From: an uncultured Clostridia bacterium
GTDB lineage: Bacteria > Bacillota > Clostridia > Christensenellales > UBA1242
Direction of reading: 5' to 3'
Assembly (NCBI GenBank): GCA_944377145.1
Contig: CALWEH010000007.1
Location: 91,099-155,098 of the forward strand
DNA: 64,000 nucleotides
The stretch's first letter is position 1. The number at the start of each line of letters is the position of its first letter. Shown here piece after piece: positions 24,742 through 60,856 of the stretch. A model generated the notes under the pieces. That model worked only from the letters and a program-made list of their open reading frames with translations, ran no database searches and was not told where the DNA came from. Made by a program: the position numbers and the translations under genes.

Positions 24742-25923
24742 ATGGAAGGTAATTATAACAATATATGTAACATTAAAGTAATAGGCGTTGGAGGAGCTGG
24801 TAATAATGCTGTAAATAGAATGATAGAAGCAGGAATTACAAGTGCTTATTTTGTAGCAGTTAATACAGATCAACAAGTGCTTAATGTGAGTAAGGCTGAT
24901 AAAACTATTACTTTAGGAGCTAAGATTACAAAAGGTTTGGGTGCTGGAGCAAGACCTGAAATTGGTAGAGCGGCAGTAGAAGAAAGCGAACAAGAAATAA
25001 AAGACATGTTAGAAGGTAGTAATCTAGTATTTGTTACATGTGGTTTGGGTGGCGGAACAGGTACAGGCGCTGCGCCAATTATTGCAAAATTATCTAAAGA
25101 AATGGGAATTCTTACAATAGGTGTTGTAACAAAACCTTTTGCTTTTGAAGGCGTAACAAGGCAAAGAAATGCTGAGCAAGGATTAAACGAATTGAGAAAA
25201 TATGTAGATACATTGGTTATTATTCCAAACGAAAAATTATCTAAAATTTTGAAGAAAGGTACTTCTTTGGTAGATGCTTTTAGATATGCGGATGATGTGT
25301 TGCGTCAAGGAATTCAAGGTGTGTCAGAATTGATTGTTAAACCAAGTTTAATAAATCTTGATTTTGCAGATGTATCTACAATTATGAAAAATAAAGGTTT
25401 AGCTCACATGGGCATTGGTAAAGGAAGAGGCGAGTATAAAACTATGGAAGCAGTTCGTCAAGCTGTTACAAGCCAATTATTAGATACATCTATAGAAGGT
25501 GCAACAGGTATTTTAATAAATATAACAGGCGGAAGAGATCTATCTCTTGCAGAAATATATGAGGCGGTAGATTTGGTAAGAGATGTAGTTGATAGTGAGT
25601 GTAATATAATATTTGGAGCTACTATTGATGAAAATATGAATGGAGAAGTTCAGGTTACAGTAATAGCTACAGGTTTTGATATGGATAAAAATGCTCAACA
25701 AGAAGAACAGTTAGCTAATAATTATAACAATATACCTAATATATCCAACAACGAGCAAATACCTCAAGAACAATATCAGGAAAATTTAGAAGAAAATGAA
25801 GAAGATGATTTTACAGATGAAAATCTAGAAGCCCAGGCAAAAATTGAAGACATCTCTTTTGATAGTAAAGTAGATATAGGAGATAGTTCAATTCCTCCAT
25901 TTTTACGCAAATTAAAAAAATAG
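24742..25923 (+). CDS. ftsZ: Cell-division GTPase FtsZ
   Basis: GVGGAGNNAVNRM, the GGGTGTGAAP signature, and the conserved C-terminal peptide IPPFLRK. Confidence 0.98.
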   Translation: MEGNYNNICNIKVIGVGGAGNNAVNRMIEAGITSAYFVAVNTDQQVLNVSKADKTITLGAKITKGLGAGARPEIGRAAVEESEQEIKDMLEGSNLVFVTCGLGGGTGTGAAPIIAKLSKEMGILTIGVVTKPFAFEGVTRQRNAEQGLNELRKYVDTLVIIPNEKLSKILKKGTSLVDAFRYADDVLRQGIQGVSELIVKPSLINLDFADVSTIMKNKGLAHMGIGKGRGEYKTMEAVRQAVTSQLLDTSIEGATGILINITGGRDLSLAEIYEAVDLVRDVVDSECNIIFGATIDENMNGEVQVTVIATGFDMDKNAQQEEQLANNYNNIPNISNNEQIPQEQYQENLEENEEDDFTDENLEAQAKIEDISFDSKVDIGDSSIPPFLRKLKK

Positions 25924-25955: not shown

Positions 25956-25957
25956 AA

Positions 25958-26158
25958 TTATTGACCTCTAGAATGACGAATTATTTTTTCAAGTAAAGCT
26001 ACAGCAAAATACATTCCAGCTGCTAGTGTGCAAAGAATTACAACACTTGTCATAACAAGGTCAAGGTTAAATACTTGCCCTCCATATATTAGCAGATATC
26101 CTATACCAGCTTTACAAGCTAAATATTCACCCATTATAGAGCCAATCCAAGTCAACAC
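25958..26158 (-). pseudogene. 5'-truncated duplicate of the 3' end of the ABC permease gene (last ~63 codons)
   Basis: 25958-26149 aligns without gaps to 28128-28319 (offset 2170). An in-frame TGA lies immediately upstream. No RBS, and the rest of the gene is absent. Confidence 0.9.
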
Positions 26159-26383
26159 TCAATAAGTCGCTTTTCAGAACCACAACATACAGCCATAAAT
26201 CAAACAATTAAAGCACAATATGTAGTATATTGCCACACAAAAGCGACAAATTGATAGGTTGTCATTAAGCCAATTTGACTTTTTATAGTGATGAGTTAGC
26301 GAAAAAGTGGATTTTTTTTAGAGTAAAATTTTCAAGAAAAAAGTATGTTTTTTATATAAAATGATACACTTTTTAAAAATATG

Positions 26384-26392
26384 TGTTATAAT
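26384..26392 (+). promoter_or_regulatory. Candidate extended -10 promoter P1 (TGtTATAAT)
   Basis: TGTTATAAT at 26384-26392 with a weak -35. It would produce an mRNA that includes the AGGAG RBS and the leader ORF. Confidence 0.4.
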
Positions 26393-26428
26393 AATATTGT
26401 CGAAAAATAAAAAAGTAGTTAAAAAGGT

Positions 26429-26457
26429 TTGACAGGGTAATAGGAGTTTGGGATAAT
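26429..26457 (+). promoter_or_regulatory. Near-consensus sigma-A promoter P2 (TTGACA-N17-GATAAT with TGg extension)
   Basis: TTGACA at 26429-26434, a 17-nt spacer ending in TGG, and GATAAT at 26452-26457. The predicted start is about 26463-26465, at the first repeat units. Confidence 0.55.
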
Positions 26458-26581
26458 GTTTACAAACAAACAAACAAACAAACAAACAAACAAACAAACA
26501 AACAAGGCTAATTACGCCTTAAATCTTTTTAACGCAATAAATATAAATTTAACACTAAACAATATGGTTGGACTTGTTTAG
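26456..26581 (+). CDS. Putative 41-aa leader peptide containing the tetranucleotide repeat (MF(TNKQ)3TNK ANYALNLFNAININLTLNNMVGLV)
   Basis: AGGAG at 26442-26446 lies 9 nt before ATG 26456. The ORF runs through the repeat and the terminator's 5' arm and loop, and stops at TAG 26579-26581 inside the 3' arm. It is mutually exclusive with a start from P2. Confidence 0.3.
   Translation: MFTNKQTNKQTNKQTNKANYALNLFNAININLTLNNMVGLV
26462..26505 (+). repeat. Perfect tetranucleotide microsatellite (ACAA)11, equivalently (CAAA)10 plus CAA
   Basis: Counted directly: 44 nt, no interruption, G- and T-free on the + strand. Confidence 0.98.
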
Positions 26582-26590
26582 TGTTTTTTT
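26551..26590 (+). terminator. Strong intrinsic terminator between the repeat unit and the lipoprotein gene
   Basis: Perfect 11-bp stem AACACTAAACA (26551-26561) / TGTTTAGTGTT (26575-26585), a 13-nt loop, followed by a T-run. Confidence 0.8.
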
Positions 26591-26637
26591 GTATTTAAAA
26601 TCAAGATTTAAGATAAAATAAATAAAAGGAGAAAAGA

Positions 26638-28077
26638 ATGAAAAAGAAATTATTAAGTTTTATTTTTGCAATTTGTTTGATTATTCCTGCTATGTTTATG
26701 CTAAGTGCTTGCACAAAAGAAGATGAAAGGTATTTTGAAGTTAAGTATAACTTGAATGGAGGAATTAATAGCGAACAAAATATAACAACTATAAAAGAAG
26801 ATGAAGATTTTATTTTAAGCGAACCAACAAGAGAGGGGTTTGTATTTGATGGTTGGTATGAATCAAAAACATTTGATGGTAATGCAGTAATACAGATTGA
26901 TGATATTGAAACAAATGTTGAATTGTTTGCGAAATGGTCACTTCCACAAAACACTAACAACGAATATATAATTTCAAATGTCGATACTTTGATATATTTG
27001 AAAGACAATAAAGATTTGTGGGATAAAAACTTTTCCCTTTCCAATTCTATTGATTTGGGTGGAATAATATGGGAAGGAATAGGAGATAGTTATTATCAAG
27101 GTTCTATGTATAATAAAGGATTTTCCGGAACATTTAAAGGAAATGGTTACACAATTTCAAATTTTAAATTAGAAATAAAATCATATTCACCATTTGTAAT
27201 GGAACATTATTTAAACAATAGGTGTGGGTTCTTTAATTATATAGACGGGGGAAAGGTTTCAGGCTTAAATCTATTTAATGTTAACATAAAAGGAAATTAT
27301 CAATTTGGTAGATTTAATGATTTCTGGGAAGGTGTTGTTATAATTGGTTGTTTGGCTGGATATTGTGATGGGATTGTAGAAAATTGTGATGTTATTGCTA
27401 GTGAAATTGATTTAAACATATATTCTGATATATATAATAATTTCTCGATAGGTGGTTTAATAGGTGGTGCTACTGTTGAAGGTAACTCAATTAAAAACTG
27501 TAAAGCATATTGTGATATAAATATAGATATTGCATTACCAGGCGGATATTCAACAAGTAATATGGACTGTGCAGGACTAATTGGAGGAACGAATTCTTCT
27601 GATGGTACTATATCCAATTGTTGTTTTGTTGGAGATATTGTTTGTAACCAATATAGTGCATCAAATAATACTGAAATGCATGTTGCAGGATTGGTCGCCA
27701 AATCATGGAGTATAATGTTTGAAAATTGTTTTGCAATATCAAATATTTCAGTAGTGGCAAATAGTTATTCCAAAACATATGTTGGTGGAATAAATGCAAA
27801 CGGAAGCTCTGAAAATAGTGATAGATTAAATAATTGTTTTTCTAAGATGATGGTTGATTATAGAGGGGCTGAGGAGATTTTATATAATCTACAGATTGAA
27901 GAAGAAATAAATGATTATTCGTCAAACTACTATGTAGATGATGATAGTTTATTTATTATAAATGGTGTGGTTTATAAATCAGAGATAGAAGAACTTACAT
28001 CATATACAACAATTAAAAATAATCTTAAAACAATTTGGGAAGAAAGTGGCTGGAACTGGCACGAATATCCATATTAA
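26638..28077 (+). CDS. Surface lipoprotein with a Listeria-Bacteroides (Flg_new) repeat and GLUG-like repeats
   Basis: Signal peptide with lipobox MFMLSAC. YNLNGG..LSEPTREGFVFDGWY..FAKW matches the Listeria-Bacteroides repeat. Reiterated GGLIGG / AGLIGG / AGLVA motifs resemble GLUG. RBS GGAG lies 6 nt before the ATG. Confidence 0.8.
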   Translation: MKKKLLSFIFAICLIIPAMFMLSACTKEDERYFEVKYNLNGGINSEQNITTIKEDEDFILSEPTREGFVFDGWYESKTFDGNAVIQIDDIETNVELFAKWSLPQNTNNEYIISNVDTLIYLKDNKDLWDKNFSLSNSIDLGGIIWEGIGDSYYQGSMYNKGFSGTFKGNGYTISNFKLEIKSYSPFVMEHYLNNRCGFFNYIDGGKVSGLNLFNVNIKGNYQFGRFNDFWEGVVIIGCLAGYCDGIVENCDVIASEIDLNIYSDIYNNFSIGGLIGGATVEGNSIKNCKAYCDINIDIALPGGYSTSNMDCAGLIGGTNSSDGTISNCCFVGDIVCNQYSASNNTEMHVAGLVAKSWSIMFENCFAISNISVVANSYSKTYVGGINANGSSENSDRLNNCFSKMMVDYRGAEEILYNLQIEEEINDYSSNYYVDDDSLFIINGVVYKSEIEELTSYTTIKNNLKTIWEESGWNWHEYPY

Positions 28078-28091
28078 CATTTAAATAAAAT

Positions 28092-28120
28092 AAAAAGAGA
28101 GCTCTAAACTCTCTTTTTTT
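28092..28120. terminator. Bidirectional terminator between the lipoprotein gene and the intact permease gene
   Basis: A-run-AGAGAG-loop-CTCTCT-T7. Confidence 0.7.
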
Positions 28121-28127
28121 GTATATA

Positions 28128-28937
28128 TCATTGACCGCGGGATTTGCGGATGAATTTTTCAAGTAAAGCTACAGCAAAATACATTCCAGCTGCTAGTGTG
28201 CAAAGAATTACAACACTTGTCATAACAAGGTCAAGGTTAAATACTTGCCCACCATAGATTAGCAGATATCCTATACCAGCTTTACAAGCTAAATATTCAC
28301 CCATTATAGAGCCAATCCAGCTTAAACCTACATTAACTTTTAAAGTAGATATTAAATCAGGAATACTTGCAGGTAAAACTACTTTGAAAAATATTTGAAA
28401 ACGATTTGCACCAAGTGATTTTAACAAATTAATAAGATTTTTATCAGTATTTAAAAATGCTGTTAATACATTTAGTGTTGTTACTATCACAACAATTAAT
28501 ATTGCCATGGTTATAATAGCTTTACTTCCAACACCCATCCAAATTATAATAATTGGACCAAGTGCAATTTTAGGCAAGCTATTAAGAGTAACTATAAAAG
28601 GTTCTAAATATTTTCTTAAATATTCGCTTAACCATAATACAATAGCTAAAGCTATTCCTATTCCTGTAGCCAAAGCAAAAGCATATAAAGTTTCTTTTAA
28701 AGTTATAAATGCATGCATAAATAATTCTCCAGTAGAATACAACTGTTTAAGAGTATCCCAAATTCTGCTAGGAGAGGAGAAAAAGAATACATCTATAAAT
28801 CCTGTTTTTGCTCCAACTTCCCATATTACAAAAAATAGAATAAGAGTAATTATCTGTAATATTATTATGCTTGATGTTTTAAGTCTGTTTATAGTTAAGA
28901 ATTTCTTATGTTCTGCAGAATAATTATTTTTTTTCAT
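28128..28937 (-). CDS. ABC transporter permease (NitT/TauT family, BPD_transp_1)
   Basis: Six TM segments and an EAA-like loop region. I prefer the start at MKKNNY (28937), which overlaps the ATPase stop; the ORF-track start at 29000 was rejected. Confidence 0.85.
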   Translation of the reverse strand: MKKNNYSAEHKKFLTINRLKTSSIIILQIITLILFFVIWEVGAKTGFIDVFFFSSPSRIWDTLKQLYSTGELFMHAFITLKETLYAFALATGIGIALAIVLWLSEYLRKYLEPFIVTLNSLPKIALGPIIIIWMGVGSKAIITMAILIVVIVTTLNVLTAFLNTDKNLINLLKSLGANRFQIFFKVVLPASIPDLISTLKVNVGLSWIGSIMGEYLACKAGIGYLLIYGGQVFNLDLVMTSVVILCTLAAGMYFAVALLEKFIRKSRGQ

Positions 28938-31486: not shown

Positions 31487-31568
31487 ATTATTGTAATGTT
31501 ATATTCCTATAAAATCACTATTGACAAACTTTGGACGATATGTTAAAATTAAGTCAAGGAGAGATATT

Positions 31569-34591: not shown

Positions 34592-34649
34592 ATATAAAAA
34601 CCATTAAAAAGCAGTTGACTTTTTAATTAAATAGTGTATAATAATATTA

Positions 34650-60704: not shown

Positions 60705-60856
60705 TAAAAATTAGCAATTAAGCTAATTTTTTTATCATAAACTAAAAAACTCATATAAAAAACATGCTTTTTTAAAAATTTAATTGAAAATCTATTGACA
60801 AAAAGTTTAACTATGTGTAAAATAAAAAAGAATTTGAAGTCAAGGTGGTGAAATTA

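Follow-up and report, generated by a model that had tools for sequence, protein, structure and literature searches.

Phase-variable expression of a surface structure through a repeat-bearing leader peptide and a transcription terminator has been described for the pil1 and pil3 operons of Streptococcus gallolyticus (Danne, Dubrac, Trieu-Cuot and Dramsi, 2014, PLoS Pathog 10:e1003860; PMC3894217). In both operons a ribosome-binding site (RBS) and an ATG open a leader open reading frame (ORF) made up for the most part of GCAGA repeats; a premature terminator follows, which the translating ribosome opens (PMC3894217). For pil1, pilus expression is low when the leader stop codon lies at least 28 nt before the hairpin and high when the stop comes 4 bp ahead of the hairpin or within or beyond it; this model was borne out by mutants of the ATG or RBS, of the terminator and of stop codons, by quantitative reverse transcription PCR and by uncoupling with chloramphenicol, and the system is also functional in Lactococcus (PMC3894217). 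In the literature that we searched, a switch made of leader peptide, repeat and terminator is described only for these two pilus operons of one Streptococcus species. Here we analyse a 64-kb stretch of DNA (28% GC; hereafter the window) from an uncultured Christensenellales (Clostridia) gut bacterium, in which an (ACAA)11 tract stands within a short leader ORF, ahead of a terminator-like hairpin and a gene for a lipoprotein. An earlier note on this DNA had proposed a repeat-gated attenuator and knew of no described example of phase variation combined with leader attenuation. That last statement does not stand, as the S. gallolyticus precedent exists, and because the pil1/pil3 switch is already proven (PMC3894217) the idea of the mechanism is not categorically new; the locus is a candidate further instance of the pil1 principle and not a new principle.

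The tract (26462-26505, plus strand, as are all features below unless stated otherwise) is perfect, and it is the sole perfect microsatellite found in the window by Tandem Repeats Finder (TRF). It forms codons 3-17 of a leader ORF of 41 codons (26456-26581; MFTNKQTNKQTNKQTNKANYALNLFNAININLTLNNMVGLV*), which begins at ATG 26456 with a Shine-Dalgarno (SD) sequence, AGGAG (26442-26446), 9 nt 5′ of it. As in a pil1-type leader, a short ORF with its own SD and ATG encloses a simple sequence repeat (SSR) whose unit is not a multiple of three. The ORF ends at TAG 26579-26581, within the 3′ arm of a hairpin that resembles an intrinsic terminator (26551-26596) and comprises a stem (26551-26562 / 26574-26585), an 11-nt loop and then UUUUUGUAUUU. 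The stem is 100% complementary, as the earlier note had it, but is 12 bp long where 11 bp had been given. Folding of the hairpin gave -11.5 kcal/mol (z = -2.8); with an extra 10-bp A/U lower stem the region 26500-26598 reaches -23.5 kcal/mol (z = -4.4), and none of 200 shuffled sequences folds as well. The A-rich segment 26538-47 is able to pair with the U-tract, lengthening the stem. The lipoprotein gene, of 479 aa, follows with its own SD (AAGGAG; 26627-28077, ORF 26638-28077), its ATG at 26638 being 47 nt after the T-run, and a consensus scan found no promoter-like site in the intervening 26591-26637, both as the earlier note had stated. In silico, the order therefore includes a predicted terminator between repeat and gene with no promoter-like site after it, a further feature of the pil1 type.

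In order to follow the reading frame, the leader was rebuilt in silico with 7 to 17 ACAA units. With 8, 11, 14 or 17 units (n = 2 mod 3) the leader stops at 26579, in the 3′ arm of the terminator. When n = 0 mod 3 it stops at TAA 26509-26511, ending 40 nt before the stem, and when n = 1 mod 3 at TAA 26520-26522, ending 29 nt before the stem. The rebuilt leaders reproduce what had been claimed for the stop codon in the 3′ arm and for the two outcomes of adding one unit (TAA 26509) or removing one (TAA 26520), both at least 29 nt before the hairpin, and the SD, the ATG and the 41-codon ORF with the repeat as codons 3-17 were likewise confirmed. Both out-of-frame TAA codons are held in a small hairpin of 5 bp (AAGGC/GCCUU, 7-nt loop; 26504-26522). 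All three leader frames stop 57-129 nt before the lipoprotein ATG, and therefore any effect of the repeat on the lipoprotein must be indirect.

The ACAA tract is not a chance feature, because it is perfect and its length differs between strains (11 versus 14 units, see below). In the window, 37 copies of the arrangement AGGAG-N5-10-ATG were counted where about 8 are expected; the majority of the 37 are genuine gene starts, and the probability that one falls by chance within 20 nt of the repeat is about 1e-3. The leader ORF has been annotated by gene callers on 10 public contigs. There are no further copies of the leader region in the window. Rfam gave no match at gathering score anywhere in the window, and a permissive Rfam scan of 26100-26700 returned only noise, the best hit having E = 0.29 and lying on the wrong strand.

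By analogy with pil1, we tentatively favour, at a little less than an even chance, the reading that the locus controls a surface lipoprotein through a slipped-strand phase switch like that of S. gallolyticus pil1, probably with a second promoter (P2) adding transcription that is independent of the repeat. RNA from an upstream promoter (P1) would carry the SD, the ATG and the leader ORF with (ACAA)n as codons 3-17. With n = 2 mod 3, as with the 11 units here and the 14 of a second strain, ribosomes would translate through the terminator's 5′ arm and loop as far as the stop codon in its 3′ arm; with a ribosome on the terminator the hairpin could not form and RNA polymerase would continue into the lipoprotein gene (ON). 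If one unit were gained or lost, the stop would move to 26509 or 26520, so that the terminator would form and only leak-through would reach the gene (OFF or low). P2 probably fires too, giving RNA without the leader start and hence either repeat-independent expression or a short terminated RNA. From the arrangement of these elements we infer that P1 is used, that the leader is translated, that the hairpin terminates transcription and that the locus switches. The reading is supported by the SD-ATG two codons ahead of a perfect tetranucleotide tract, by the one frame that stops in the 3′ arm while the others stop 29 and 40 nt before the stem, and by a terminator 47 nt upstream of the lipoprotein ATG without an intervening promoter-like site. 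Further support comes from the tract, whose length has changed (11 versus 14 units) between strains with flanks about 98.5% identical, from the nature of the target, a lipoprotein that has a repeat domain of the adhesin type and is encoded on a strain-specific cassette, and from the fact that the pil1 logic is proven in another member of the Bacillota.

The proposed switch depends on an RNA that starts upstream of 26442. P1 (26363-26392; GATACA-18-TGtTATAAT), which has an extended -10 element, a poor -35 element and a predicted start near 26398-26400, is the only candidate promoter whose RNA would include the leader SD and ATG. It fell below the threshold of the consensus scan, because its -35 element matches at just three of six bases, and was read from the sequence; it is identical in the second strain. 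In the minimum-energy fold of P1 RNA, and present only in that RNA, a 13-nt pair (26418-26430 / 26521-26533, 92% complementary) closes a long helix around the leader SD, ATG, repeat and small hairpin, and this modelled helix might limit translation of the leader.

P2 (26429-26457; TTGACA-17-(TGg)GATAAT) is a near-consensus sigma-A promoter that matches at 11 of 12 bases and has an extended -10 element (-10 region 26452-57). It overlaps the start of the leader, with the SD in its spacer and the ATG within its -10 hexamer, and because of the latter P2 RNA cannot encode the leader. Transcription from P2 is predicted to start at about 26464, among the opening bases of the ACAA tract; the repeat would be transcribed but untranslated in P2 RNA, as judged from this predicted start, and this does not hold for P1 RNA. 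Sites that match the consensus at 11 or more of 12 bases number 23 in the window against 6.2 ± 2.1 expected (about 4-fold), and near-consensus sites with an extended -10 TG number 7 against 0.2 (about 35-fold). Since such sites are enriched in the window and mostly lie directly upstream of ORFs, P2 is on this sequence evidence very probably a working promoter. Transcription solely from P2, which the earlier note had itself named as fatal to its proposal, remains a live risk, as P2 ranks among the strongest promoter matches of the window. Three other near-consensus promoters (31521-31549, 34615-34642 and 60795-60823) each lie 300-540 nt upstream of the next long ORF; the long leaders that follow them have no match to an Rfam family, and after two of the three an AGGAG-ATG site starts a short ORF, of 76 and 81 codons.

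Population data were taken from public assemblies. Ten public contigs carry the exact lipoprotein and ten carry the exact 41-aa leader; those listed come from at least five samples of two projects. All contigs retrieved match the window at 100% identity, over as much as 13 kb; they represent one clone, always with 11 units. A second strain (strain B, contig L005), about 1.5% diverged, has a perfect tract of 14 ACAA units. Both numbers are 2 mod 3 and place the leader in the read-through frame. The elements described above, their geometry and the difference in repeat length between the two strains can be read directly from the DNA. Copy number was taken from assemblies, which do not display heterogeneity within a sample, and two Logan contigs (L004 and L006), both broken within the tract at 30 nt (k-1), are uninformative on copy number. 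The uniformly in-frame alleles are compatible either with a switch held ON or with a stable tract, and switching is not demonstrated by them. The attenuator proposed in the earlier note stands as regards its anatomy, which also fits the distance rule of pil1; its stochastic variation was not seen, 11 and 14 units giving the same frame. A search for homologues of the leader peptide gave no match, and an exact look-up of ten modelled leader lengths was uninformative, as the collection holds no such short peptides, not even the known 41-aa one.

A number of these results weigh against a pil1-type switch. No out-of-frame allele was found at the level of the assembly consensus (11 units in 10 of 10 assemblies of the clone, 14 in strain B), and two alleles would share a frame by chance with p of about 1/3. 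The region 26506-26660 is 100% identical in both strains, and this identity downstream of the repeat is not significant because the background divergence is only 1-1.5%. A frame open from repeat to hairpin is expected by chance at about 0.25 per frame at 28% GC (an estimate). The terminator is weak, with an A/U-rich stem and an unusually large loop of 11 nt. P2 is statistically the better promoter than P1, its predicted start leaves the leader SD and ATG off the RNA, and if it dominates, gating by the repeat could alter expression only slightly. The tract is an isolated case, with no second SSR locus within the 64 kb, and there is no comparative support, no orthologous locus being present in any collection searched.

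A potential explanation that would not need to invoke translation of the leader is that transcription starts at P2 (about 26464) and (ACAA)n forms the first 44 nt of a 174-nt 5′ untranslated region (UTR). The SD and ATG would then be a by-product of the promoter sequence, and the hairpin a constitutive partial terminator or an attenuator for another factor; repeat length would tune mRNA level or stability gradually, would merely set the length of the RNA from P2 to the terminator, or would have no effect. In its favour are the near-consensus match of P2 with its extended -10 element, the genes that mostly follow such sites in the window, the retention of P2 in strain B despite three spacer changes (spacer 18 nt there), and the prediction that the tract is unpaired in every fold. 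Graded control by a tetranucleotide repeat is also known, from uspA2 of Moraxella catarrhalis, where AGAT(n) upstream of the ORF has a graded effect on mRNA with differences of up to 3.4-fold in the account of a source that itself relies on earlier work (PMC7302503, citing Attia & Hansen 2006). However, this explanation does not account for an SD-ATG that precedes the tract by two codons (chance probability about 1e-3), for a terminator placed after the tract and ahead of the gene, or for a frame geometry that follows the pil1 rule. A change in copy number would moreover alter neither the first transcribed bases nor any predicted pairing, and P2 RNA has no start codon with an SD ahead of the lipoprotein ATG. 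We consider an untranslated repeat rather unlikely as the whole account of the locus.

It is less probable again, and in our view improbable, that the tract has no regulatory role, being a microsatellite, or what remains of the 5′ end of a formerly phase-variable gene, that came with a horizontally acquired cassette. The relation of short ORF and hairpin would then be accidental and the lipoprotein would be expressed via leak-through or an unrecognised promoter. The constant copy number in 10 assemblies would suit this view, as would the statistically unremarkable open frame up to the hairpin. The tract is also the only SSR in 64 kb, so that the genome shows no general strategy of contingency loci, and related genomes lack the cassette, which 193-nt duplications flank here, so that the region upstream of the gene may be scrambled; within that region, 26152-26337 is about 11% diverged between the strains and carries a 34-nt indel. 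Yet bacteria seldom carry long perfect tetranucleotide tracts, which tend to decay when they are not used, and this one is perfect in both strains despite a length difference of three units. In addition, its immediate neighbours are promoters on one side and a surface-protein gene on the other, and it is accompanied by an SD-ATG and a terminator but by no promoter further downstream.

Finally, we think it quite doubtful that the overlap of P2 with the leader start is itself functional, the same 30 bp serving as a strong sigma-A promoter and as the start of the gating ORF to give two RNA classes, in which read-through of the P1 class would be set heritably by the repeat frame and the P2 class would start with (ACAA)n and mostly end at the terminator, as a short RNA (in the 11-unit strain about 125-130 nt) with an unstructured 5′ tail that would vary in length by slippage and might act alone or set a basal level. 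Such a two-layer arrangement of promoter and leader is not described for pil1 (PMC3894217).

Other roles for the repeat were considered and set aside. Classical phase variation within an ORF does not apply, as the lipoprotein ORF begins 132 nt after the tract and the leader stops earlier in all frames; nor does phase variation through a promoter spacer, the tract lying 5 nt downstream of the P2 -10 element and 70 nt downstream of that of P1. As an antiterminator, or as a pairing partner of the 5′ coding region of the lipoprotein gene, the repeat has only A/U-rich matches of 6-14 nt, and it is unpaired in all minimum-energy folds. An invertible promoter was rejected as an account of the repeat: the sole notable upstream inverted repeat (26159-74 / 26239-54) encloses 64 nt without a strong promoter. 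A minus-strand ORF at 26318-26497 was treated as spurious, as it starts with TTG inside the repeat and lacks an SD.

The lipoprotein has a signal peptide with the lipobox LSAC and, at residues 33-99, a Flg_new domain (Listeria-Bacteroides repeat, adhesin-type); the remainder has a distant resemblance to GLUG-motif proteins. It is an orphan, with one variant that is 99% identical and otherwise only domain-level matches. In metagenomes of the Joint Genome Institute (JGI) a DNA-pattern search was without match and a protein search gave only distant, domain-level matches, and searches of IMG/VR and of plasmids and phages gave no match. The host FtsZ is 75-79% identical to FtsZ of metagenome-assembled genomes (MAGs) named Candidatus Onthoplasma, and in loci anchored on FtsZ neither the cassette nor any SSR occurs downstream of ftsZ in 8 related Onthoplasma-like MAGs.

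In the window, ftsZ (24742-25923) and then its terminator lie 5′ of the cassette region. The left border is D1L (25957-26149, minus strand), 193 nt that duplicate the 3′ end of an ABC permease gene, and the inserted cassette (26150-28126) comprises the lipoprotein gene and its entire upstream region, a non-coding stretch of 490 nt separating D1L from the gene. A bidirectional terminator (28092-28118, assigned to neither strand) closes the lipoprotein cassette, and the intact permease gene is next, ending in D1R (28127-28319), the second copy of the 193 nt, to the right of the cassette. D1L and D1R are direct copies, 94% identical in the window strain (98.8% over the last 165 nt), and a cassette flanked in this way by copies of the permease 3′ end is the outcome expected, from its sequence, of single-crossover (Campbell-type) integration. 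A 1612-nt contig (L025; European Nucleotide Archive ERZ28614461, scaffold_88172) runs from the 3′ end of the lipoprotein gene through a complete D1R into the 5′ start of the cassette with 11 ACAA units. If D1L x D1R recombination had excised a circle, or if the cassette were duplicated in tandem, a junction of this kind would be expected; it could equally be an assembler mis-join over the shared 62-165 nt. In strain B, D1R is 85% identical to D1L as against 94% in the window strain (28140-28257 compared with L005), and judging from these sequences gene conversion between D1L and D1R probably rewrote the C-terminus of the permease in the window strain. The stretch 26152-26337 is a hot spot of divergence between the strains, with about 20 differences in 186 nt (about 11%) and a 34-nt indel against a background of 1-1.5%. 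It contains a 16-nt inverted repeat (26159-74 / 26239-54, 64 nt apart), and its motif AAGTCGCTTTT recurs once within the extra 34 nt of strain B.

In classical translational phase variation the SSR lies in the 5′ end of the structural gene itself, as in lic1A or mod of Haemophilus influenzae and opa of Neisseria. The present locus resembles these in that a repeat with a unit length not divisible by three begins within a few codons after an ATG and the frame decides the outcome, and differs from them in that the repeat is outside the lipoprotein ORF. In the pyrBI attenuator of Escherichia coli and the tet(M) leader of Tn916, a leader ORF overlaps the terminator and a ribosome close behind RNA polymerase prevents the hairpin from forming; the signal in these cases is physiological (UTP-dependent pausing, or the supply of charged tRNA) and not a heritable change of repeat frame. 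With uspA2 (PMC7302503) the locus shares a tetranucleotide repeat, placed after the promoter region and ahead of the start codon of a surface-protein gene, with a copy number that differs from strain to strain; in uspA2 the effect is graded and involves neither a leader ORF nor a terminator. By analogy, uspA2 is the right comparison here only if P2 is the working promoter.

The closest likeness is to pil1. The predicted order of elements is the same (promoter, SD-ATG, repeat-rich short leader ORF, intrinsic terminator, and a gene for a surface structure without a promoter of its own), repeat number sets the frame and hence the position of the leader stop relative to the hairpin, the leader stops, two of them 29 and 40 nt before the stem and the third within the 3′ arm, agree with the distance rule, and the host is again a member of the Bacillota that lives in the gut. 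There are also clear differences. The two systems have no sequence relationship, with 11-14 copies of ACAA here and 13-26 copies of GCAGA in pil1/pil3. One frame in three would be ON here, as against two in three for pil1, and the hairpin is weaker (-11.5 versus -18.7 and -28.2 kcal/mol). A stronger second promoter overlaps the leader start here, an overlap not reported for pil1, whose start site of transcription was mapped upstream of its leader, and the target is a single lipoprotein gene in place of a sortase-pilus operon. Unlike pil1, which is experimentally proven, the locus is known from its sequence alone. If the pil1-type reading is true, this would be a second, unrelated instance, differing in repeat unit, gene class and taxon (an uncultured member of the Christensenellales), and would mean that the design arose more than once and has probably been overlooked in gut Firmicutes. 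It would also supply a recipe for searching metagenomes, namely an SD-ATG, an SSR with a unit that is not a multiple of three, a terminator and a gene for a secreted or surface protein, which would find phase-variable surface proteins that ordinary scans for SSRs within ORFs overlook. We conclude that, among the systems compared here, it is the leader, repeat and terminator of pil1 that the ACAA locus most closely resembles.

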